Shown here: positions 4,578 to 52,228 of the stretch, piece after piece | Layout of the letters: every line of letters begins with the position of its first letter | Position numbering within the stretch: the stretch's first letter is position 1 | From: Minisyncoccota bacterium | GTDB taxonomy: Bacteria > Patescibacteriota > Minisyncoccia > Phycocordibacterales > JABMNX01 | Assembly: GCA_040876885.1 (NCBI GenBank) | Contig: JBBDOU010000008.1 | Location: forward strand, 42,986-106,985 | Direction of reading: 5' to 3' | DNA length: 64,000 bases | The notes under the pieces: model-generated | The model's input: only the letters and a program-made list of their open reading frames with translations | Told to the model about the DNA's origin: nothing | Databases searched by the model: none | Made by a program: the position numbers and the translations under genes

Positions 4578-5174
4578 ATGAAACACGGAGATATAAAAAA
4601 CCAACTCGTTCCCATGGTGGTTGAAAAATCACAAGGAGGTGAACGTGCATATGATATTTATTCACGCCTCTTAAAGGACCGTATTATATTCTTGGCGGGT
4701 CCTATTGATGACCACACGGCAAATCTTATCATCGCACAGCTCCTCTTCCTCGAATCTGAGGACCCAAAGAAAGATATCTCTTTCTACATCAACTCACCAG
4801 GAGGTAGCGTCTCAGACGGACTCGCGATACTTGATACTATGAACCATATAAAACCAGATGTTTCTACAGTCTGTGTCGGACTTGCAGCATCGATGGGAGC
4901 TGTACTACTTTCAGCTGGAAAGAAAGGTAAACGATTTGCACTTCCAAACGCTGAAGTGATGGTCCACCAACCATGGGGTGGAGCACAAGGACAAGCGTCA
5001 GACATTGAAATCACCGCAAAGCATATTCTTGCAACACGAGAGCGGTTAAATAAAATTCTTGCTAAAAATACTGGAAAGAGTCTTCCCCAGATAGAAAAAG
5101 ATGTCGACCGAGACTACTTTATGACCTCAGACGAAGCTAAAAAATATGGACTCGTTGACGAGGTATTGAAATAA
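4578..5174 (+). CDS. clpP: ATP-dependent Clp protease proteolytic subunit
   Basis: 198 aa; active-site region [30 protein letters not shown]; directly follows tig. Confidence 0.95.
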
Positions 5175-5185
5175 CATGTAATCGA

Positions 5186-5218
5186 AAAACGCCGTGCATA
5201 TCCTGCACGGCGTTTTTA
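5186..5218 (+). terminator. Rho-independent terminator after clpP
   Basis: Hairpin gccgtgca-tatcc-tgcacggc followed by TTTTT. Confidence 0.75.
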
Positions 5219-5671
5219 TTTATATGCATCTTTTCTTAGTGCGTACGCACCCCATAAAATAATTGCCTCTTTGACATTGAGACTTCCATTCTGGGGTAAT
5301 GTAGAAATAGTACGCGAGCTTAAAACAATACAGCGCACCGAAGCCGAGGACCCACAGAATAGTTGCTTGAATAAGATCTACAAGCACGAGTTGCATTTCC
5401 GTCTCCATTTCTAAACATTTCTATTCAAAATAGAGAACAATGCGAACAGTTAGACAATCGCAAAAACCCGTGATATATTCAGAGTGCACTGCAATAGTGT
5501 TCTTATTTAATTTAACACTGAAATCAAGCCCTTTACCTTACGTTGCTGATGTTCCTGAATGACAGAAATCCTCACGATGGCCCGTATCACCATATACTCT
5601 CTATATAGACCTTACATACTACATAAAAACCATCCGTATACTCACTATAAAGGCACGATTTTAGCCTACAT

Positions 5672-7201
5672 ATGTCATTAAAAGTAATACTGGTTCTGCT
5701 CATCGTTGCGGGACTTATCGGTATTGCAGTTGGTTACTTTCTACGTTGGCTCCATTCTCTTGGAAGACGAGGTTCAATGGAACTCGAAATCAAGCAAATG
5801 ATGCTTGAGGCACGTGACGATGCGAAAAACATCACAAAAGAAGCCGAAGCAAAAGCCGAAAAGACACTCACTGAGCTGAGTCAAGAGCTAAAAGAAGGAA
5901 GAGAACAGTTGAAGAGAACTGAAGACCGTCTTGTAAAAAAGGAGGAGCTTTTAGATAAACGACAGACAGATATCGACGCTGATGTTGAAAACCTCAAAAA
6001 GAAAATAGAAGAAGTCCGCGTATTTAAAGAAAAAGCTGAAGCGTTGGTTCTAGAACGACAACTGAGTTTAAGTAATGTTGCACATCTTAGTGCTGACGAT
6101 GCAAAAAAGGAGCTCCTTGGGCTTATTGAAAAACAGTCTGAAGAAGATATGCTTATCCGTCTTCAAAAGCTAGAAATTGAAGGGAAAGAACGTCTTGAAA
6201 GAAAAGCGCAGGATATCCTTACCACCTCTATTCACCGTCTTGGAAACTCAGTGATTGACGATATTATGTCTACGTCAGTGAAAATTCCATCTGATGAAGT
6301 TAAAGGAAAGATAATTGGAAAAGAAGGTCGTAATATAAAAGCATTTGAACGGGCAACCGGCGTTGACGTCATTATTGATGACACACCACACACAATAAAT
6401 ATCTCATCATTTGACCCGATTCGTCGTCATGTAGCACGTATTGCACTAGAGAACCTTATCGCTGACGGACGAATTCAACCGGCAAAAATTGAAGAAGTGG
6501 TACAGAAGGCAAAAGATGAAATCAATAAGACGATTAAAGAAAAAGGTGAGCAAGCAGCGTACGAATCAGGAGTACATAATCTTGATCCACGCGTTGTCGC
6601 GATACTTGGGCGCCTTCACTTCCGTACGAGCTACGGGCAAAACGTCTTGTACCACTCAATAGAGATGGCGCACATTGCGGGAATGCTTGCAGAAGAACTT
6701 GGTGCTGACCCGTACGTTGCACGCGCTGGAGCACTCCTTCATGACATCGGTAAAGCGGTTGATCACGAGGTTCAAGGAACACATGTTGAGATAGGAAAAC
6801 GTATCTTACAAAAATTCGGAGTAGACGAGGCTATCATCAAGGCGGTTATCGCACATCACGAAGAATACCCGTACGAGACACCTGAATCTATGATAGTTCA
6901 AGTTGCTGATGCTATTTCAGGTGGACGACCTGGAGCACGTCGTGATTCTGTAGAGAACTATATACAACGTCTCGAAGAGCTTGAGGCTATAGCCAAAAAC
7001 TTCCCTGGTGTTGAAAAGAGTTACGCAATTCAGGCTGGACGAGAAATTAGAGTATTCGTAACTCCTGAGAAAGTCTCTGACTTAGAAGCTAAGAAAATGG
7101 CGCGTTCTATAGCGCTCCAGATTGAAAACGAGCTCAAATACCCAGGAGAAATTAAGGTAAATGTTATCCGAGAGTCACGCTCTATAGAGTTTGCGCGGTA
7201 A
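5672..7201 (+). CDS. rny: Ribonuclease Y
   Basis: N-terminal TM helix, coiled coil, KH domain (KGKIIGKEGRNIKAFERATGVDVIID) and HD domain (HSIEMAHIAGMLAEELG...LLHDIGK). Confidence 0.9.
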   Translation: MSLKVILVLLIVAGLIGIAVGYFLRWLHSLGRRGSMELEIKQMMLEARDDAKNITKEAEAKAEKTLTELSQELKEGREQLKRTEDRLVKKEELLDKRQTDIDADVENLKKKIEEVRVFKEKAEALVLERQLSLSNVAHLSADDAKKELLGLIEKQSEEDMLIRLQKLEIEGKERLERKAQDILTTSIHRLGNSVIDDIMSTSVKIPSDEVKGKIIGKEGRNIKAFERATGVDVIIDDTPHTINISSFDPIRRHVARIALENLIADGRIQPAKIEEVVQKAKDEINKTIKEKGEQAAYESGVHNLDPRVVAILGRLHFRTSYGQNVLYHSIEMAHIAGMLAEELGADPYVARAGALLHDIGKAVDHEVQGTHVEIGKRILQKFGVDEAIIKAVIAHHEEYPYETPESMIVQVADAISGGRPGARRDSVENYIQRLEELEAIAKNFPGVEKSYAIQAGREIRVFVTPEKVSDLEAKKMARSIALQIENELKYPGEIKVNVIRESRSIEFAR

Positions 7202-7265
7202 ATTTCTGAAGCACATTGACATAAGACACCAATACATAGCGTAATACTTGTGCAAAATACAGATA

Positions 7266-7293
7266 TTGCGCTAACAATGGGGCTCTGTATAAT
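7266..7293 (+). promoter_or_regulatory. Candidate sigma70-type promoter for hup
   Basis: TTGCGC-N16-TATAAT about 70 nt upstream of the hup start. Confidence 0.3.
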
Positions 7294-7363
7294 GATTGTG
7301 TAATTTCACAGTACAGAATGTATACATTATGTCCTGGTTATTAATGCACAAGGTCGAGATTAA

Positions 7364-7660
7364 ATGACTTTTAGCAAAACACATATGAACAAAGCAGCAA
7401 TCGTAGAAAAAGTACACGAGACGCTTGGTGGAACTAAAGCTGACGCAGAACGCGCAGTGGATACAATGGTAGGAAGTATCATTGACAGCCTTAAAGGAGG
7501 TCAGGAAGTTTCAATCGCAGGTCTTGGTATTTTTGAAGCTAAGATGCGAAGTGCACGAACTGGACGAAATCCTCGAACAGGAGAGTCAATCCAAATTCCA
7601 GCTATGCGCGTACCAAAATTCCGCGCAGCTAAAGCACTTAAAGACGCAGTAAAAAATTAA
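7364..7660 (+). CDS. hup: DNA-binding protein HU
   Basis: 98 aa; HU/IHF fold signature GLGIFEAKMRSARTGRNPRTGESIQIPAMRVPKFRAAKALKDAV. Confidence 0.9.
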   Translation: MTFSKTHMNKAAIVEKVHETLGGTKADAERAVDTMVGSIIDSLKGGQEVSIAGLGIFEAKMRSARTGRNPRTGESIQIPAMRVPKFRAAKALKDAVKN

Positions 7661-7688
7661 GCTTAATTTTTAACTTGTCACTATCTAT

Positions 7689-7716
7689 AAAAGCCTCACG
7701 AAAGTGAGGCTTTTAT
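7689..7716 (+). terminator. Rho-independent terminator after hup
   Basis: gcctcac-gaaa-gtgaggc hairpin followed by TTTT. Confidence 0.75.
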
Positions 7717-7736
7717 AGTGGAGATGTAGTTTCTTA

Positions 7737-7811
7737 AGAGAGAATCGGTCACGGTCGCTAAATGTTTTGGGGTCAAGTTTCTAAACTTGCTTTGTTAGTA
7801 GAGAGAATCGA
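7737..7811. repeat. Two partial copies of the tRNA-Gly(TCC) T-loop/3' stem flanking an 18-nt motif TTGGGGTCAAGTTTCTAA
   Basis: agagagaatcg at 7737 and 7798 matches the T-arm of the adjacent tRNA (gtagagagaatcgaac at 7932); the same 18-mer recurs at 12986. Confidence 0.5.
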
Positions 7812-7892
7812 CGACTAGTCACTAAGTAAAATTTTCGTCTTTCAGACTTAATTTTACTTAGTGCTTTTCGTCTAGCCTCAGCTAAATACAAA

Positions 7893-7920
7893 AAGACCCC
7901 ATAAAACGTGGGGTCTTTTT
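7893..7920. terminator. Bidirectional hairpin terminator just 3' of tRNA-Gly(TCC)
   Basis: agacccca-taaaacg-tggggtct with T-runs on both strands. Confidence 0.65.
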
Positions 7921-7928
7921 GTATTTTG

Positions 7929-7999
7929 TGCGGGTAGAGAGAATCGAACTCTCGTCTACTGCTTGGAAGGCAGTCATTCTACCACTAAACTATACCCGC
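7929..7999 (-). tRNA. tRNA-Gly (anticodon TCC)
   Basis: Reverse complement GCGGGTATAGTTTAGTGGTAGAATGACTGCCTTCCAAGCAGTAGACGAGAGTTCGATTCTCTCTACCCGCA folds as a cloverleaf; anticodon loop CTTCCAA. Confidence 0.9.
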
Positions 8000-8037
8000 T
8001 CTTATAACTCAACGAATGTAATCCTACCAAAATACAA

Positions 8038-8060
8038 CAAACCCCGCAATTGCGGGGTTT
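8038..8060. terminator. Bidirectional terminator hairpin (aaaccccgcaattgcggggttt)
   Basis: Perfect palindrome; T-rich on the minus-strand side, just downstream of the small acidic ORF. Confidence 0.6.
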
Positions 8061-8083
8061 GTTAGTTGAAGATTGAATAAAAA

Positions 8084-8203
8084 TTACTCAGCTGCTTCTT
8101 CTGTAGTTGCTTCTTCAACAGCTCCTTCAGTTGCTGGTGCATCTGTAGTTGCTTCTTCAGTTCCTTCTGCTCCTTCTACTACTTCGTCAAATACGAATGT
8201 CAT
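8084..8203 (-). CDS. Small acidic peptide (39 aa), unannotated
   Basis: ATG...TAA ORF MTFVFDEVVEGAEGTEEATTDAPATEGAVEEATTEEAAE, below the ORF-track length cutoff; followed by a CCCCGCA hairpin terminator; N-terminus resembles a second acidic mini-ORF at 52112..52228. Confidence 0.3.
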   Translation of the reverse strand: MTFVFDEVVEGAEGTEEATTDAPATEGAVEEATTEEAAE

Positions 8204-8407
8204 AATATTTTTTGTCTTACGTTCAAACACCATTTAAAGTGTTCGGAACACTGATAAACAAAAAGCTGGGCTTATAACCCAAGCTATGTCCATAAGTATA
8301 CATGAGACACCCGTATTGTCAATACTACATAATAAATATAATCTATTGTCAAAATCTATAATAACCCGTGTTGAAGGGCTCTTTCTTGGTGTTATACTAA
8401 ATAAACT

Positions 8408-13007: not shown

Positions 13008-13292
13008 CGCCAGGATTCGAACCTTACAGATTCAGTACAGGTTGGCGATATTTTTACAAAATATCTGACAACCTTTTCGAATCCTCTTAGTCGCTACAAA
13101 CAAAATCACCCAATGTTCTCACATCGGGTTCATTTGTTTGTTGTGCGCCTACCAGGATTCGAACCTTACAGATTCAGTACAGGTTGGCGATATTTTTACA
13201 AAATATCTGACAACCTTTTCGAATCCTCTTAGTCGCTACAAACAAAATCACCCAATGTTCTCACATCGGGTTCATTTGTTTGTTGTGCGCCT
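13008..13292. repeat. 142-bp tandem duplication (two units) each carrying the 3' half of tRNA-Arg (T-loop to discriminator) plus 119 bp of downstream spacer
   Basis: caggattcga recurs at 13011, 13153 and 13295 (period 142); units are identical and run directly into the intact tRNA-Arg; the most distal copy (13008-13022) diverges after CCTGG. Confidence 0.85.
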
Positions 13293-13357
13293 ACCAGGAT
13301 TCGAACCCAGAATAACGGTTCCGAAGACCGTTGTGATATCCATTTCACCATAGGCGC
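13286..13357 (-). tRNA. tRNA-Arg (anticodon TCG)
   Basis: Reverse complement GCGCCTATGGTGAAATGGATATCACAACGGTCTTCGGAACCGTTATTCTGGGTTCGAATCCTGGTAGGCGCA; perfect acceptor stem; anticodon loop CTTCGGA. Confidence 0.85.
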
Positions 13358-16367: not shown

Positions 16368-17558
16368 ATGAACCATAGAATAAAGAACATGTTGTTGCCG
16401 TTTCTCCTTATCGCACTAATCCCAATCCTTATCTGGGGGTACGGGTGGTATCAGGGAAAGGTGTCGCCAAGTGAAGCAGACATGTCTGAAGTTATAGTGG
16501 GCGAAGCGGTTGGATATTTTGCTGGTGGGTGTTTCTGGTGTACTGAAAGTGATTTTGAAAAACTATCGGGGGTAACCGACGTTGTCTCTGGATACATGGG
16601 AGGGGATAGTGAGCATCCAAGCTACGTGCAAGTTGCAGGTGGAGAGAGTGGTCATCGAGAAGTGGTGAAGGTGACGTATAATCCAAACGAAGTGAGTTAT
16701 CGAAGGCTCGTCCTCGATCTCTTAAAACACACCGATCCAACTGACGAAGGTGGCTCGTTCTACGACCGAGGACATCAATACACGTCTGCGGTGTACTACC
16801 AAACGGAAGAAGAGAAGGCTATCGCGGAAGCAGTCCTCACGGAGATCGACACACTTGATGTGTATGAAAAACCTACTGTAACGAGTGTTGAACCTGCAGG
16901 AACATTCTGGGTGGCAGAAGACTACCACCAGGACTACTACAAGAAGAATCCTCGACAATACCAATACTACCGGACCGGTTCAGGGCGAGATGCATTTATA
17001 CAATCAGTGTGGGGGGACGGCATGCATGATGCGTTATTTATAGAGGAGATAATGAACGAATTAAATATAGGTAACAAAGGTAGTGCGGGAACGGATACTA
17101 TAAAGAATTCCTGGATAAATTTTGAGAAGCCAAGTGACGCAGTGCTCAAAAGCACCCTTACTGAACTTCAGTATTATGTAACACAAAAAGAGGGGACCGA
17201 GACTCCTTTTAAAAATGAGTACTGGGACAACCACGAGGAAGGTATTTATGTGGATGTCGTTTCAGGAGAACCTCTTTTTTCTTCAACTGATAAATTTGAT
17301 TCAGGTACAGGGTGGCCAAGCTTCTTAAAACCAATTGACTATAGCTTTGTGACCGAGCATAAAGATTACAAACTTATTATTCCACGTACGGAGATACGCA
17401 GTAAGATTGCGAATTCTCACCTTGGGCACATTATCCTTGATGGACCAATTGAGAACGATGGAATCCGCTACTGTATGAACTCTGCAGCACTTCGTTTCGT
17501 ACCAAAAAAAGACCTCAAAGCAGAAGGTCTTGGTGAGTATGCGAGCCTGTTTAAATAA
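16368..17558 (+). CDS. msrAB: Peptide methionine sulfoxide reductase MsrA-MsrB fusion with N-terminal membrane anchor
   Basis: MsrA active site GGCFWCTE; MsrB zinc/catalytic region ([10 protein letters not shown]...[11 protein letters not shown]); start taken at MNHRIKN, which precedes the TM helix. Confidence 0.88.
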
Positions 17559-17588
17559 CCACCTCACCGCCAGCTTCTTTCCACTGCA
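17508..17588. repeat. 81-bp direct repeat, copy 1 (3' end of msrAB plus truncated 3' end of the rhodanese gene)
   Basis: Matches 18151..18231 with 2 mismatches. Confidence 0.9.
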
Positions 17589-17624
17589 CAATATCTTACT
17601 CCAGTGGAAGGACTCAAGCTTTTC

Positions 17625-18158
17625 TTATTTTTGCACAAAAATAAAATCTTCGTCACCTTTCCAAAAATCATCTAGATGCTTATGGTCTCCAACGAGCCAA
17701 ATAAAATTATCACCTCCATGCACTACTCGGAACTGACTCTCGTGATTTTCTGAGTCAAATTGAGATTCCATTCCAATTTGTAATGATTCTAATCTTGGTT
17801 GATGTAAATATTGAATTCTTAACTGAGGACCAACCTCTAAAGGACATATTTCTAGCCCAGCTTCAGTAGCCTTTTTATATATATCTTTTCTATAAGCTCC
17901 ATTAGAGAACCCTAAACCTGAAGGAGTGATCCTAACTAAATCTACTTTCTTTTCGGTTTTGGACATCGTGAAAGATTCACTATGTAAAACATCCTCCGCC
18001 CAGCTACCTATCCTAAATCCTTTCTCTTTAATAGCCCTCTTTAGTTCCTCCACGTTTTTATACGTACCAATGTTAATAGTCTTCCAAACTTGAAATCTTT
18101 TCATGTCTTTAGTATACCAAAGCTTTAAAAGTACCATGCTGAGGTATAAAAAAGACAT
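17625..18158 (-). CDS. Orphan protein of unknown function carried on the insertion between the 81-bp repeats
   Basis: ORF lies entirely between the repeat copies; first ATG is inside repeat copy 2 and an alternative start is MKRFQV (18104); no recognisable motifs. Confidence 0.5.
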   Translation of the reverse strand: MSFLYLSMVLLKLWYTKDMKRFQVWKTINIGTYKNVEELKRAIKEKGFRIGSWAEDVLHSESFTMSKTEKKVDLVRITPSGLGFSNGAYRKDIYKKATEAGLEICPLEVGPQLRIQYLHQPRLESLQIGMESQFDSENHESQFRVVHGGDNFIWLVGDHKHLDDFWKGDEDFIFVQK

Positions 18159-18231
18159 CAAAGCAGAAGGTCTTGGTGAGTATGTGAGCCTGTTTAAATA
18201 ACCACCTCACCGCCAGCTTCTTTCCACTGCA
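18151..18231. repeat. 81-bp direct repeat, copy 2 (pseudo 3' end of msrAB plus the functional 3' end of the rhodanese gene)
   Basis: aaagacatcaaagcagaaggtcttggtgagtatgtgagcctgtttaaataaccacctcaccgccagcttctttccactgca. Confidence 0.9.
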
Positions 18232-18496
18232 TGATACCGTGCGCGTTCTCGACGTGAGTAAAGCCTGCTTCTTCTAAGATTTCCTTAGCTCTTCCTGCGC
18301 GTCCTCCAGCATTACATGCGGTATATATTTTCATGTCTTTAGGTATGTTTGGTAATTCACCGTTTTCAAACCGTTCGAACTCAAACCGTGTGGCGAGCTT
18401 CGCGTGTCCTGTGTCCCACTCTTCGTCTCTTCTTAAATCAAGAAATACCGCCTCTCCAGATTCAACTTCTTTTGTTATTTTTTCTATATCTATCAT
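18194..18496 (-). CDS. Rhodanese-like single-domain sulfurtransferase
   Basis: 100 aa; active-site loop YTACNAGGRAGRA. Confidence 0.75.
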   Translation of the reverse strand: MIDIEKITKEVESGEAVFLDLRRDEEWDTGHAKLATRFEFERFENGELPNIPKDMKIYTACNAGGRAGRAKEILEEAGFTHVENAHGIMQWKEAGGEVVI

Positions 18497-18505
18497 ATTA
18501 TTTAT

Positions 18506-18904
18506 TTACGTTGGTCTGTTATTTTTTCTAAAAGTAATCCTGTATACAAAGTACCCAATGAGTCCTAACTGAATGGTGGGAGTGAGTCCTACCACAAGGA
18601 AGGGTACTAACGGCATCATGTATGTATACTCCCAACGCTCAATCCCCAGTGCCCAGTATTCGATACCTACAGATACGATCACCCCGCCAAGAATAAGTAA
18701 ACTCGGATACCGTCTTGATATAGCAAAAAGTTGTAGTGCAAAAATTAATGCGAGTATTATTACCGCGTCAACAAATGCTGCCCTAAACAACATAAGTTCT
18801 GTTATAGGCTCTCCTTTATAGTGAACATACAAAAAGTGATGCGCGTTCTCCCAAATGAGATTTAATCCAAACGCGTAGATAAAAACGAGAAACCATTTTT
18901 TCAT
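18506..18904 (-). CDS. Polytopic membrane protein, unknown function
   Basis: 132 aa with four hydrophobic helices. Confidence 0.5.
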   Translation of the reverse strand: MKKWFLVFIYAFGLNLIWENAHHFLYVHYKGEPITELMLFRAAFVDAVIILALIFALQLFAISRRYPSLLILGGVIVSVGIEYWALGIERWEYTYMMPLVPFLVVGLTPTIQLGLIGYFVYRITFRKNNRPT

Positions 18905-18933
18905 ACCAAGCAGTATACCAAAATTAGAAATAT

Positions 18934-19734
18934 CTACAGATCTATTTCAATACTCACAGGGCAGTGGTCTGAGCCCATCACCTCTTTATGAATAGTTGCT
19001 TGAGTAAGCTTTGGTACAAGTTTTTTACTGACAAAAAAATAGTCAATACGCCACCCAACGTTTCGTGCGCGAGAGTTTTGCCAATGTGTCCACCATGAAT
19101 AGTGACCATTCCCTTCTGGAGTGAAGTGACGAAAGGTATCAACGAATCCAACGTCAACCATACGGTTGACACCGTCTCGCTCTTCGTTGGTGAATCCATG
19201 CTTTCCTTCGTTTGGTTTTGGATGTGCAAGGTCTTGTTCCTCATGCGCTACATTGAGGTCACCACAAAAAATGACCGGTTTCTTCTTCTGAAGCACTGCA
19301 CAGTATTCAAGAAATGCAGGATCCCAGTTTTCATGACGGAGCTTTAAGCGGCTTAAATCACCTTTTGAATTTGGCGTGTACACGGTCACCACAAAAAATT
19401 TTTTAAACTCAGCCGTGATGACACGACCTTCTGTGTTTGGATTACCATATCCATCGTCTTTAATCTTGTACTTCTTTGCGATGTCAGTCGGTATATCATT
19501 GACTACAGACAGCGGTTTTTCTTTTGTGAAAATTGCGGTACCTGAATATCCTTTTTTTACTGCTGAGTTCCAGTACTCAGTGTAGTCAGGTAAATCAACA
19601 GGGGACTGGTCAGGTTGTGCCTTGGTTTCCTGAAGACATAGGATATCTGGTGTATGTTTCTTAACAAACGGAATAAAGAGTCCTTTATTGTGAACTGCGC
19701 GTATTCCATTTACATTCCATGACATTATTTTCAT
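18934..19734 (-). CDS. xth: Exodeoxyribonuclease III / AP endonuclease
   Basis: MKIMSWNVNGIRA N-terminus, ILCLQETK, C-terminal SDHCPV; start placed at MKIMSW rather than the longer track ORF. Confidence 0.88.
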   Translation of the reverse strand: MKIMSWNVNGIRAVHNKGLFIPFVKKHTPDILCLQETKAQPDQSPVDLPDYTEYWNSAVKKGYSGTAIFTKEKPLSVVNDIPTDIAKKYKIKDDGYGNPNTEGRVITAEFKKFFVVTVYTPNSKGDLSRLKLRHENWDPAFLEYCAVLQKKKPVIFCGDLNVAHEEQDLAHPKPNEGKHGFTNEERDGVNRMVDVGFVDTFRHFTPEGNGHYSWWTHWQNSRARNVGWRIDYFFVSKKLVPKLTQATIHKEVMGSDHCPVSIEIDL

Positions 19735-19750
19735 TACCATCGAGTATACC

Positions 19751-19786
19751 ATGAACAAAAAACACCTCACCTTCCAGAAGGTGAGG
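19751..19786. terminator. Bidirectional hairpin terminator (acacctcaccttc-caga-aggtgaggtgt)
   Basis: Perfect stem flanked by A- and T-runs. Confidence 0.65.
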
Positions 19787-20582: not shown

Positions 20583-21521
20583 CTACTTTCTGCCTTTACC
20601 ATGAAACTGTTTATGTATATCGTGAAGATGTTTATCGGTTACGTGGGTGTAAATCTGAGTCGTCGCGATATTTGCGTGTCCTAAGAGTGCCTGCACTGAA
20701 CGGAGGTCTGCGCCGTTTTGTAGCAAGTCAGTCGCAAATGAGTGTCGGAGCGTGTGTGGTGTCACTCGCTTATCAATCCCTGCTTTGATTGCATATTGTT
20801 TCACTAAACGTTCTACTCCTCGTGTTGAGAGTCGCATGGAACCACTTTCAGTCTCTGCGCGTTTTGCACCACGACCTAAGTAAATAAAGAGTGCCTCATC
20901 AGTGTCTTTTCTTTTATCTAAATATTTTTTAATCGCACTTTTTGCTCCGAGCGATATAAATACTGGACGTACTTTGCCACCTTTACCACGCACAGAGATT
21001 TCGTCACGACTCCAATCAAGATATCGCGAGAGGGAACACAGCTCTGACACACGAAGTCCTGTAGAGAAGAGAAGCTCGAGTATTGCTCTATCGCGGAGTG
21101 CCTTCACCTCGTCTCCCTCGGGGGACTTAAGGAGTCTTTGAAGTTCTGTTGATGAAATGAGACTCAAGTCCCGTGGGGTTTCTTTTGCAAGCTCTATCGT
21201 GTCAGGAGGAAGGACCTCAAAACCACGTTTCACAAGATATTTTAGGAATTGACGAAGCGCAATAAGATAATAATTCTGTGTACGCCGATTAAGCCCCGCA
21301 CGGTTCAGTTCAAGTCGATATTTTCGTATCTTTTCAGTTGTAATATCTTGTACTTCTTTAGCCCCCGAAAAAACAAAAAACCGAGTGACGTACCGGTTAT
21401 AATTTTCAACCGTCTTGAGTGCACGACCACGCTCAATCTCAATATATTCGAGATATTCTTGCTTGAGTGACTTTAAGTTCTGCGCCATTATATTTATTAT
21501 AGCAGTTATTGTGCGACCCAT
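20583..21521 (-). CDS. xerC: Tyrosine site-specific recombinase (XerC/XerD family)
   Basis: C-terminal catalytic region HTLRHSFATDLLQNGADLRSVQALLGHANIATTQIYTHV. Confidence 0.85.
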   Translation of the reverse strand: MGRTITAIINIMAQNLKSLKQEYLEYIEIERGRALKTVENYNRYVTRFFVFSGAKEVQDITTEKIRKYRLELNRAGLNRRTQNYYLIALRQFLKYLVKRGFEVLPPDTIELAKETPRDLSLISSTELQRLLKSPEGDEVKALRDRAILELLFSTGLRVSELCSLSRYLDWSRDEISVRGKGGKVRPVFISLGAKSAIKKYLDKRKDTDEALFIYLGRGAKRAETESGSMRLSTRGVERLVKQYAIKAGIDKRVTPHTLRHSFATDLLQNGADLRSVQALLGHANIATTQIYTHVTDKHLHDIHKQFHGKGRK

Positions 21522-46889: not shown

Positions 46890-47993
46890 ATGAAAATAAC
46901 CTGTGAAAAAAAAGATCTATTAAACAGCTTAGTTATTACAGAAAAAATAACTGGTACTAATCCAACACTACCAATCCTTAGTTGTGTGTTATTAATTGTG
47001 AAAGATTCAATTCTTACTGTACGTTCAACAAATCTTGAGCTTGGTATTGAAGTATATATACCAGTCACTTCAGAAGAAGATGGAATAGTTGCTATTCCGG
47101 GTCATATTTTTTATAACACTATACAAAATACACACGATAATTCTATTACTCTTGAAACACAAAAAGATACACTTGTTATTCAAACAAAACATAGTAAAAC
47201 AGTACTTAATACACAAATATATGATGATTTTCCATCATTACCAATAATTCAAAACAACACAACATATACATTAAAAACAGAGAATATTATTAAAGGTATA
47301 GAATCAGTTGTGTATAGTGCGTCTAATTCAACTATTAAACCAGAGCTTTCAAGTGTGTATGTGTATGAACATGATAATAAAATATTTTTTGTTGCAACAG
47401 ACTCTTTTCGATTAGCTGAGAAAACAACACATATTAAAGAAAAAAATACACTTAACCAATCATTTCTACTTCCATTAAGAAACGCATTAGAGGTGGTGAG
47501 AATTTTAAACCAATTACCAGATGATAATATTTTAATTAAAGTAGATAATAACCAAATATCCCTTGAAGGTAAAAATTTATTTATCACATCAAGAATTATT
47601 GATGGTGTATTTCCTGACTATAAACAAATTATTCCTAAAGATTATATTTCAGAGGTAATTGTATTAAAACAGGATTTAGTTAATGTTTTTAAGAAAATAA
47701 GTATTTTTTCTGATAAATTTGGACAGATATCTATCGATATACAACCAAAGAAAAAAAACGTGACCATACATACAAATAACAATACAATAGGGAAAACAAG
47801 TGATGGTATTGATGCTGCGGTGACTGGAGAAGCGTTGGTAATGAGTTTTAATTACCGATATATATACGATTGTCTTACCTCAATACATTCAGACAGTATT
47901 ACGTTACTTTTTACTGGTATTGGTAAACCACTTATTATAAAAGGTGTCTCTGATGAGTCATTTTTGTATCTCGTAATGCCGATGAATAAGTAA
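46890..47993 (+). CDS. dnaN: DNA polymerase III beta sliding clamp
   Basis: 367 aa with three-domain clamp architecture (MKITCEKKDLLNSL..., C-terminal LVMPM); directly after dnaA; about 28% GC. Confidence 0.88.
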   Translation: MKITCEKKDLLNSLVITEKITGTNPTLPILSCVLLIVKDSILTVRSTNLELGIEVYIPVTSEEDGIVAIPGHIFYNTIQNTHDNSITLETQKDTLVIQTKHSKTVLNTQIYDDFPSLPIIQNNTTYTLKTENIIKGIESVVYSASNSTIKPELSSVYVYEHDNKIFFVATDSFRLAEKTTHIKEKNTLNQSFLLPLRNALEVVRILNQLPDDNILIKVDNNQISLEGKNLFITSRIIDGVFPDYKQIIPKDYISEVIVLKQDLVNVFKKISIFSDKFGQISIDIQPKKKNVTIHTNNNTIGKTSDGIDAAVTGEALVMSFNYRYIYDCLTSIHSDSITLLFTGIGKPLIIKGVSDESFLYLVMPMNK

Positions 47994-52111: not shown

Positions 52112-52228
52112 CTACTCTTCGTCATCGTCTCCATCTGTGTCTGTATCTAGGTCCATATCATCGTCTCCATCTGTGTCTGTATCTAGGTCCAAGTCGTCAT
52201 CTTCTAGCTCATCGTCAAAATAAAACAT
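52112..52228 (-). CDS. Small, highly acidic repeat peptide (38 aa), unannotated
   Basis: ATG...TAG ORF MFYFDDELEDDDLDLDTDTDGDDDMDLDTDTDGDDDEE, below the ORF-track length cutoff; lies immediately upstream of the CCCCGCA terminator. Confidence 0.3.
   Translation of the reverse strand: MFYFDDELEDDDLDLDTDTDGDDDMDLDTDTDGDDDEE
52120..52191. repeat. 36/37-bp tandem direct repeat (x2) inside the acidic mini-ORF
   Basis: atcgtctccatctgtgtctgtatctaggtcca occurs twice in tandem. Confidence 0.8.

Follow-up and report, generated by a model that had tools for sequence, protein, structure and literature searches.

Integrases insert at the 3' ends of genes and bring along a replacement end borne on the element, as in the case of e14 at icd and of islands at tRNA and tmRNA genes, and a classical mark of their att sites is a pair of direct repeats, 80-90 bp long, by which gene 3' ends are rebuilt. 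Another documented source of duplications is interchromatid integration during transformation (Johnston et al. 2013, PMC3784515), the pneumococcal cases of which are tandem duplications of 100-900 kb between IS-derived repeats (PMC3784515). As to proteins, variable proteins of diversity-generating retroelements (DGR) with a C-type-lectin fold are known from Patescibacteria, where they belong to cellular DGR clade 2 (Roux et al. 2021, PMC8144416). How genes are gained in CPR/Patescibacteria is poorly understood, because the genomes are small and contain few recognisable mobile elements.

In an uncultivated Paceibacterota bacterium, a stretch of 64,000 nt (the window) contains a locus at which one gene appears to have been gained recently, with both joints still preserved; in every relative that was sampled, this site is different. 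The reading favoured here, with moderate confidence, is a one-off recombinational insertion-duplication, by which a single gene was recently gained at a hot spot between msrAB and exoIII. The event is best read as neither transposition nor homing, and the locus would thus cleanly record the gain of a gene at a variable site, without representing a new kind of mobile element; as a single case it is a useful example.

The msrAB-rhodanese junction and its two copies

The features of the locus are the following (positions in the window):

16368..17558, plus strand: msrAB, fused MsrA-MsrB of 396 aa, intact (PF01625, PF01641; NCBI record of 396 aa; homologues)
17505..17593, no strand: direct repeat copy 1, comprising the authentic 3' end of msrAB, a terminator hairpin and a rhodanese 3' end that is only a non-functional remnant
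17509..17531, minus strand: intrinsic-terminator-like hairpin (-10.3 kcal/mol), followed by a T-run at 17499-17508
17551..17593, minus strand: rhodanese 3'-end remnant, to which weak similarity may run on to about 17603
17594..18147, minus strand: insert-specific DNA of 554 nt, made up of the 159-aa gene and its flanks, 31 nt on the 3' side and 43 nt on the 5' side, the latter with a putative promoter of its own
17625..18104, minus strand: gene of 159 aa with a C-type-lectin fold, ATG at 18104 (NCBI call, alignment of homologues)
18111..18119, minus strand: putative extended -10 promoter-like element TGGTATACT, 6 nt 5' of the ATG, read from the sequence
18148..18236, no strand: direct repeat copy 2, comprising the authentic 3' end of rhodanese, a terminator hairpin of reduced stability and an msrAB 3' end that is a non-coding remnant and carries both substitutions
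18152..18174, minus strand: the same terminator hairpin repeated (-4.6 kcal/mol), separating rhodanese from the inserted gene
18194..18496, minus strand: rhodanese-domain gene of 100 aa (PF00581), intact, with its last codons inside copy 2

A repeat search and base-by-base comparison give two direct repeats of 89 nt (17505-17593 and 18148-18236) with 96% identity at an offset of 643, which are the only dispersed direct repeats of at least 40 nt and more than 90% identity in the whole 64-kb window, so that the pair is far beyond chance. The 81-nt core (17508-17588 and 18151-18231) has exactly two mismatches, 17514 C/A and 17542 C/T, and the copies have an identical core of 45 nt. Each copy holds the last 16 codons of msrAB with the stop TAA (17556-17558) and, in antisense, the rhodanese stop (17551-17553) with the last 11-13 codons, the two reading frames overlapping by 8 nt; mismatches and content are as given in the original prediction. 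Identity with copy 2 is 44/46 over 17505-17550, 38/38 over 17551-17588 and only 7/15 over 17589-17603, resulting in a fuzzy right edge, and beyond the borders of the repeat it does not exceed chance, with 6/30 to the left and 4/21 to the right. The left border falls exactly where the T-run ends that belongs to the hairpin at 17509..17531; this hairpin lies within the msrAB coding sequence, would serve minus-strand transcripts, and has a stem that is kept in the related loci L170 and L172.

The msrAB gene ends in copy 1 and the rhodanese gene in copy 2, each gene running in frame into its copy, and the reading frames bear out that both genes are intact, as had been claimed. As both copies represent the same junction in frame with their respective gene, there must have been a contiguous junction at which msrAB and the rhodanese gene converged, followed by an insertion with duplication. 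The predicted ancestral junction thus has the support of the two in-frame copies, although the empty site was not observed in relatives. An origin by tandem duplication is rejected, since this would have given a junction from the rhodanese end to the msrAB end, and both copies have the opposite order. The two substitutions (2/84 in an 84-nt core) are both in copy 2, in the half that derives from msrAB and is non-coding, and as 17514 is a C also in L170 and L172, the base in copy 2 is derived; this position in a non-coding half, with at least one derived base, is as expected of drift after the duplication. The second hairpin is weakened because of the C to A change at 18157. The rhodanese remnant in copy 1 carries ATT GTG (IV) like L172, and the intact rhodanese gene has ATC ATG (IM).

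It could be suspected that the arrangement is an artefact of assembly, be it a chimera caused by the repeat or a small circle that was assembled into the chromosome, as the MAG derives from short reads and two k=31 Logan contigs end inside the 45-nt identical core, but this is also what is expected of a true repeat. A separately assembled second MAG, GCA_040881575.1, has both repeats and the insert in identical form, the copies differ at defined positions with each in frame with its own gene, the 45-nt core is within the span of standard 150-nt reads, and there must be real DNA that contains each of the junction sequences. Such an artefact is therefore hardly to be expected.

The inserted gene and its family

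The novel DNA measures 554-562 nt, and the 643 bp originally given as the length of the insertion are the period of the repeat. The insert may be of foreign origin; its composition deviates by only about 1-1.5 SD, with a GC content of 0.35 as compared to 0.43-0.48 in the flanks and a GC3 of the gene of 0.28-0.30 as compared to 0.352 +/- 0.05 in the genes of the window. The encoded protein has 159 aa and not the 178 aa predicted, as the extension to a TTG is supported neither by the NCBI call nor by the alignment of homologues. A simple promoter scan is insensitive to the extended -10 type, and the element TGGTATACT was therefore recognised by eye; the leaderless-type layout that it would provide precedes also the homologues in L174, L090 and L091. 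With a dN/dS of 0.08 relative to the closest homologue, the sequence indicates that the gene is functional and under purifying selection.

No Pfam, NCBIfam or PHROG entry matches the protein, and neither a nuclease nor a recombinase domain or fold is found in it, the domain searches and the lectin-like fold indicating the absence of LAGLIDADG, GIY-YIG, HNH, His-Cys and PD-(D/E)xK nuclease domains. A sequence-profile search against the PDB gave zero matches, and Foldseek against the PDB weak ones only. The gene had been regarded as an orphan, but the database search with the protein places it in a very large family of Patescibacteria with 5,962 cluster representatives, distant members of which are true DGR variable proteins with VR/TR pairs, adenine-specific mismatches and an adjacent RT. 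The supposed orphan is thus one member of a huge family of lectin-fold proteins, DGR variable proteins among them, and it appears to be a non-diversifying relative of those of Patescibacteria, diversification having apparently been left behind. A second copy of the 3' region of the gene (TR) is absent from the 64-kb window, and a DGR origin of the flanking repeat is rejected, as its mismatches show no adenine specificity, its position is outside the gene and a TR is lacking from the window.

The family could be regarded as a dedicated mobile cassette, either of a homing type or as a new element with long and variable target duplications, perhaps moving in small circles, as its members occur in many unrelated contexts, sometimes adjoining tRNA genes. 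The closest homologue, L174, has a gapped direct repeat on its flanks and an 11-mer in common with the 5' flank of the insert, which hints at some cassette-associated sequence, and the 71% identical homologue L090 lies on a circular-looking contig of 1,660 bp. Flanking repeats of 9-10 nt were found at 3 of 10 short-form loci as compared to 3% of mismatched controls, but these are low-complexity words and n is only 10. Motifs common to the insert flanks and L174 (TTTTAAAGCTT, AAAGCTTGA) are statistically suggestive but not collinear, and give no definable element boundary. The flanking repeats of L101, L103, L164 and L174 turned out to be no host gene ends but repeated promoter/5' modules of consecutive genes or tandem paralogues, and a general dispersed-repeat scan recovered mostly DGR VR/TR pairs. 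Close homologues have no conserved element termini, an IMG/VR search gave one match only, which is distant, and the protein lacks any nuclease or recombinase fold. A dedicated mobile cassette is accordingly very improbable. Around about 90 other loci of the family there are no duplicated host gene ends comparable to those of msrAB and rhodanese, and it is for this reason that the event is best read as a one-off. Of the "recombination- or homing-type" insertion originally proposed, the recombinational part remains the best reading, whereas homing does not agree with the lectin fold, the lack of a nuclease and the roughly 90 loci without duplication.

Relatives and the origin of the duplication

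In relatives with MsrAB of 71-80% identity, the flanking synteny is kept and the 159-aa gene is absent from the locus, in line with the original prediction. The interval of L170 contains two genes, X and Y, and then rhodanese, that of L172 an extra small ORF (read by eye), X, Y and rhodanese, and in L177 msrAB faces exoIII directly. As the relatives have different genes or none between msrAB and exoIII, the interval is a hot spot of gain and loss. Y (157 aa) occupies the same position, but its comparison with the 159-aa gene showed that it is a different gene and not an equivalent. None of the three sites has comparable repeats, and X and Y are not flanked by repeats. The exact empty site was not found in any database relative, the MsrAB matches jumping from 100% to 80% identity, and an MsrAB search of genome contigs gave only relatives of at most 55% identity, mostly Desulfobacterota and Vibrio, and thus contributed nothing on the empty site. 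Exact look-ups of rhodanese, the ORF and the 100%-identical MsrAB led to the same genome or to k=31 contigs that break inside the repeat, and in such contigs an empty-site haplotype is irresolvable because the 45-nt identical core exceeds k. The only recombinase nearby, a XerC-like tyrosine recombinase at 20583-21521, is 2.3 kb away and lies syntenically next to rpsO in L170, and is thus a core gene. The same window also contains att-like tandem copies of a tRNA-Arg 3' end.

If the locus arose by a one-off insertion-duplication, msrAB and rhodanese would initially have been convergent with stop codons overlapping by 8 nt and with the rhodanese-side terminator inside the last msrAB codons, and in the empty site, msrAB with 17514C/17542C would have run directly into ...CTGCATGATACC of rhodanese. 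Host recombination or repair, without any enzyme carried by the insert, would then have placed at this junction a cassette of about 555 bp that consisted of its own extended -10 promoter and the 159-aa lectin-fold gene, and with the two joints 84-89 bp apart on the target, the stretch between them would have become present on both sides. Either a circle bearing a copy of the junction could have integrated by a single crossover (Campbell-type insertion-duplication), or incoming DNA could have been integrated across two sister chromatids or by a replication template switch at microhomology, in which case the joints would be the terminator hairpin with its A-run and an imperfect microhomology in rhodanese. 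As an outcome, msrAB would keep its end in copy 1 and rhodanese its end and a terminator copy in copy 2, the new gene would lie on the same strand as rhodanese, downstream of it, with the original hairpin as its terminator, and two non-functional half-copies would drift, one change weakening the terminator between rhodanese and the new gene. A gene can apparently enter in this way between overlapping convergent genes without harm to either of them or to the shared terminator. As the event is single, its mechanism is not readable from recurrence, and the gap in MsrAB identity and the missing empty site speak against this reading.

Two other origins would account for the asymmetric differences between the copies. 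A decayed integrative element may have integrated site-specifically into the overlapping 3' ends and brought a target copy that rebuilt both genes; the repeats would then represent attL and attR, and later deletions would have removed the integrase and most of the cargo except for one gene. The repeat length and the rebuilt gene ends fit such an att architecture, the tRNA-Arg copies suggest that site-specific integration has occurred in this genome, and the element-derived halves would be that of copy 2 with both substitutions and that of copy 1 with the IV/IM difference and the fuzzy edge, a pattern that is expected if attP came from a related genome. Yet there are only 554 nt between the repeats, with one intact, selected gene and its promoter and no integrase pseudogene or other remnant, the repeat has by eye no obvious recombinase-type core (inverted arms, 6-8 bp spacer), the nearby tyrosine recombinase is syntenic in relatives, and X and Y of the relatives lack such flanking repeats. 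This origin is therefore considered unlikely.

Similarly doubtful is a two-step allele mosaic without any duplication mechanism, in which the lectin-fold gene would first have replaced most of rhodanese beside msrAB, leaving a remnant of 43-53 nt. A fragment from a sister lineage with msrAB abutting rhodanese, starting 51 nt inside msrAB, would then have been integrated by homology on the rhodanese/exoIII side and, in a homology-facilitated illegitimate recombination, by an illegitimate joint upstream of the gene. Turnover of the hot spot is clearly by gene replacement, IVQW in the copy 1 remnant, as in L172, and IMQW in the intact gene fit two alleles, and a mosaic is in agreement with the sharp left and the fuzzy right border, but two rare events would have had to occur, by way of an intermediate without rhodanese that was not found in database look-ups, and the divergence of 2/84 in the non-coding half alone is equally explained by drift after one duplication.

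A random staggered event would predict neither the T-run-exact left border nor 0/38 and then 8/15 differences on the right. It is conceivable, albeit quite unlikely, that genes are added at CPR operon ends independently of recombinases and anchored at the terminator hairpin, by template switch or strand invasion at the hairpin/T-run. New genes would then be stacked just upstream of a shared terminator and long target duplications would decay quickly, the msrAB-exoIII hot spot being the product and the present locus the one copy recent enough for its scar to be visible. As a related possibility, lectin-fold cassettes may travel as small circles (L090).

Comparison with known systems

Transposons and IS elements likewise duplicate their target directly on both sides of the insert, but by 2-14 bp and not by 84-89 bp, and here there is no transposase and no inverted repeat that pairs the insert ends; the original conclusion that this is no transposase insertion holds, as also a short target duplication is lacking. 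Homing endonuclease genes are present in some and absent from other close relatives at one conserved site, without target duplication, whereas here a duplication is present and the homologues are found at unrelated sites. Integron cassettes have attC and depend on IntI and attI, whereas this cassette has no attC-like imperfect palindrome at its end, no IntI is present, and the insert flanks are host coding sequence. DGR variable proteins resemble the 159-aa protein in sequence-profile family and fold class, but the gene in the window and its close relatives keep the C-terminal region conserved, and the flanking repeats are host gene ends that are unrelated to VR/TR repeats.

With integrase-type integration, the locus shares direct repeats (tens of bp to over 100 bp), a rebuilt gene end and a displaced pseudo-end, but there is no integrase or excisionase, only a single 159-aa gene was inserted, and two convergent genes and a terminator are rebuilt. 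No ORF of a tyrosine or serine recombinase lies between the repeats, which do not recur at other loci of the family, and as repeats that rebuild the 3' end of the target are common to both this type and recombinational insertion-duplication, they do not discriminate. From Campbell-type integration, in which a circle with a chromosomal fragment enters by a single crossover and which is put to use in insertion-duplication mutagenesis, the locus differs in that the duplicated target has only 84-89 bp, which is near the lower limit for RecA-type recombination. The topology is nevertheless that of Campbell-type or interchromatid integration, as the insert is bounded by direct copies of one contiguous target (target-insert-target), each of which continues into its own flank, and no enzyme of an element is needed for this.

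The duplicated gene junction

A repeat search returned a direct pair of 89 nt with 96% identity and a period of 643 nt (copy 1, 17505-17593, and copy 2, 18148-18236), and there is no other dispersed direct repeat of comparable quality within the 64-kb window. Compared base by base, the copies are identical at 44 of 46 positions in 17505-17550, at 38/38 in 17551-17588 and at 7 of 15 in 17589-17603, and beyond the repeat the identity is at chance level (left 6/30, right 4/21), so that the left border is sharp and the right border fuzzy. Both analyses bear out the repeat as originally predicted, including its 81-nt core with two mismatches (17514, C/A, and 17542, C/T). Each copy comprises the final 16 codons and the stop of msrAB and, in antisense, the stop and the final 11-13 codons of the rhodanese gene, the two frames overlapping by 8 nt (TTAAATAA). 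As each copy holds both gene ends, copy 1 has a dead rhodanese end and copy 2 a dead msrAB end. All three genes (msrAB, rhodanese and the insert gene) are intact.

Features at the insertion
16368-17558, plus strand: msrAB (PF01625 and PF01641), its TAA (17556-17558) within copy 1
17531-17509, minus strand: terminator-like hairpin followed by a T-run, encoded in the msrAB-derived half of the repeat
17625-18104, minus strand: insert gene, 159 aa (NCBI call)
18194-18496, minus strand: rhodanese gene (PF00581), its 3' end within copy 2

The arrangement of repeats and insert is not an artefact. The window sequence matches contig JBBDUD010000007.1 of GCA_040904045.1 (a Candidatus Paceibacterota MAG), and a second MAG, GCA_040881575.1, is identical from msrAB through both repeat copies and the insert to rhodanese. 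Two Logan contigs (k=31), one from the msrAB side and one from the rhodanese side, stop within the 45-nt identical core, as a de Bruijn graph does at a true repeat; contigs of this kind are unable to reveal an empty-site haplotype.

Tandem repeats also occur in the window. A perfect 142-nt tandem duplication (13010-13293) adjoins tRNA-Arg (13285-13357, minus strand), and its units each end in a copy of the tRNA-Arg 3' end (..CCAGGATTCGAACC), with three such ends in a row; this resembles att-site scars that integration and excision leave at a tRNA, or else a collapsed or expanded assembly repeat. A tandem repeat of two 36-nt units with 94% identity lies at 52122-52193.

The msrAB/exoIII interval in relatives

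Among MsrAB homologues, identity falls from 100% in the same organism straight to 80%. The loci of two relatives, L170 (80%) and L172 (78%), have kept the order CCA-adding enzyme / (NUDIX) / MerT-like / msrAB and, at the opposite end, rhodanese / exoIII, after which a XerC-like gene and rpsO come next in L170. Between msrAB and rhodanese both carry two unrelated minus-strand genes, X (321-325 aa) and Y (157 aa), and L172, read by eye, has an apparent extra small ORF. Y was rejected as a counterpart of the insert gene, to which it has no homology. An 8-nt overlap, again stop over stop with identical geometry, joins msrAB and X of L170 (TTAATTAA). In L177 (71%), the third of the closest relatives, msrAB faces exoIII directly and rhodanese is absent. 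A 132-aa gene without family assignment, located between rhodanese and exoIII in the window, is absent from L170 and L172.

Gene stacks between msrAB and exoIII
Window, 17505-19770, minus strand: lectin-fold gene (the insert gene), rhodanese, 132-aa gene
L170, 6169-8782, minus strand: X, Y, rhodanese
L172, 6233-9392, minus strand: apparent small ORF, X, Y, rhodanese
L177, 2601-2749: no genes

The stacks thus differ, and the lectin-fold gene was not found in the L170, L172 or L177 loci, which makes the interval a gain/loss hot spot and the lectin-fold gene a lineage-specific addition. An exact empty site, with msrAB converging directly on rhodanese, was not found among the relatives. A former empty site is implied by the structure, because both copies share the junction of the msrAB and rhodanese ends and each is in frame with its own gene, which supports the predicted insertion with duplication. 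A plain tandem duplication was rejected, as it would yield the reverse junction order.

The hairpin is located within the final msrAB codons (K-D-L-x-x-E-G-L) and would act as terminator for the convergent gene. The folding energy in copy 1 is -10.3 kcal/mol (z = -2.8). The stem is identical in the msrAB ends of the window, L170 (6127-6149) and L172 (6184-6206), with differing loops, and the hairpin is absent from the msrAB end of L177. The insert gene has the same orientation as rhodanese, has its own promoter-like element, and would end at the original hairpin. In copy 2, which lies between rhodanese and the insert gene, a C-to-A change within the stem reduces its stability to -4.6 kcal/mol, and this weakened hairpin probably allows read-through.

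The inserted gene and its family

The 554 nt between the repeats consist of a 31-nt 3' flank, the 159-aa gene and a 43-nt 5' flank, which has TGGTATACT six nt ahead of the ATG; read by eye, the same TGnTAnAnT-N6-7-ATG layout is present ahead of the homologues in L174, L090 and L091. The 178-aa, TTG-started ORF originally predicted is over-extended, since all homologues begin at or near the ATG of the NCBI call, and it is no orphan either: there are 47 homologues in the word index, at least 555 stretches of JGI metagenome contigs confirmed by tblastn, and thousands of cluster representatives (5,962 of 50%-identity clusters at E <= 1e-3, 967 at <= 1e-30). For the gene itself, Pfam, PHROG and NCBIfam gave zero matches and PADLOC a weak sub-threshold one (E 0.006). 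IMG/VR gave one distant match. A 368-aa ORF elsewhere in the window (46890-47993, plus strand; GC 0.284, GC3 0.166 versus a window mean of 0.352 +/- 0.05) is a far stronger compositional outlier than the insert gene and probably foreign.

Family members at a greater distance (42-46% identical) are true variable proteins of DGRs. In L164, where a reverse transcriptase (PF00078) lies downstream of the TR and two target paralogues are in tandem (4785-8351), 19/19 differences between TR (6760-6888) and VR (6283-6411) fall on template adenines, as do 14 of 20 against the second paralogue; in L101 (984-1106 / 2422-2544), 16 of 28 mismatches do so. Repeats of 130-138 nt, placed as VR/TR pairs would be, are present in at least seven other loci; repeats of ~130 nt, 465-535 nt apart at the gene 3' end, are seen in L102, L104, L118, L119, L137, L150 and L153. 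The pattern agrees with the cellular DGR clade confined to Patescibacteria and with the rule by which VRs are located within C-Lec folds (PMC8144416). The contig of another DGR locus, L112, has identical ends (1-123 = 2480-2602) and is circular-looking or a tandem loop. In the insert gene product, the C-terminal region is conserved among close relatives, no second copy of it exists within the window, and dN/dS against the closest homologue, in L174 (82% aa identity), is 0.08. The insert gene thus is a selected, apparently non-diversifying family member, and it is the cargo of the insertion and not its agent.

Homologues are found in unrelated contexts (ftsH/PHP, GNAT, queC, next to tRNA genes, DGR loci), with no conserved flanks past the promoter. 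In a scan of ~90 loci, flanking direct repeats were detected only in the window, L101, L103, L164 and L174, and in the latter four they stem from tandem paralogues or from promoter/5' regions repeated at consecutive genes, without duplicated host gene ends. The promoter modules ahead of consecutive genes measure 199 nt at 100% identity in L101 (227-425 / 1268-1466) and 53 nt at 96% in L103 (4662-4714 / 5585-5637; also 4767-4810). Both loci have a conserved 5'-region hairpin, GTCATAGCCAAAA...TTTTGGCTATGAC. An N-terminal module, MKYG(E/D)L(T/N)LGQIEA(I/V)VNKLGGMDG.., is common to different downstream domains. In L174 the homologue lies within a gapped direct repeat of ~55-60 nt (385-445 / 981-1045), made up of 19 exact nt, then TCYACTAGGYGGAGT and TTTTAA(A)GCT; one copy comes after the GNAT gene upstream, the other after the homologue, each followed by promoter-like sequence, and the downstream copy has TTTTAAAGCTT and AAAGCTTGA in common with both window insert flanks. 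Flanking repeats of 9-10 nt are in weak excess (3 of 10 loci versus 3% in controls), an 11-mer is common to the window insert and L174 (p ~0.001 before correction), and L090 is a circular-looking 1,660-bp contig with a family member; these weak hints, taken together, fall short of defining an element. The ends of L090 are identical (1-55 = 1661-1715, period 1,660 bp; circular-looking or a tandem loop), and its three co-oriented genes are one without assignment, a 71%-identical homologue and an AAA_28 ATPase.

Possible routes to the insertion

Transposition is excluded, as there is no transposase, there are no terminal inverted repeats, and the duplication measures 84-89 bp. Integron capture is excluded too (no attC, no IntI), as is a DGR event as the source of the repeat, whose mismatches are not adenine-specific and which lies outside the gene. 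The suggested homing-type insertion is likewise excluded, since no nuclease is encoded, the target is duplicated and sites vary. What remains is a recombinational insertion-duplication. One route would be a circle that contains a copy of the junction and enters through one crossover. The other would be integration or template switching in which the two ends of the incoming DNA are joined to two sister copies, at points separated by 84-89 bp.

Both core substitutions fall within that half of copy 2 which is non-coding. At 17514, L170 and L172 both have C, so that the change in copy 2 is clearly derived; at 17542, copy 1 equals L170 and the codon is different in L172. These substitutions are evidence for drift after the insertion event. 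A random event does not predict that the left border is the exact end of the hairpin T-run, that differences at the right border go from 0/38 to 8/15, or that the dead rhodanese end reads IV, the same as L172, and the live gene IM. These three features keep alive two other explanations: a decayed integrase element with an attP from a related genome, and a two-step mosaic, with rhodanese first replaced by the gene in one lineage and regained later as part of a fragment starting within msrAB. The left border can also be explained by selection, since survival may have been limited to products keeping a terminator for both rhodanese and the new gene.

That genes are stacked by a terminator-anchored, recombinase-independent process is very doubtful; if true, it would be of genuine interest. 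The locus is a well-preserved example, from an under-studied phylum, of a known event class, the insertion-duplication at a flexible site, and within recombinational insertion-duplication the sister-copy route is in principle comparable to interchromatid integration as demonstrated in pneumococcal transformation (PMC3784515).
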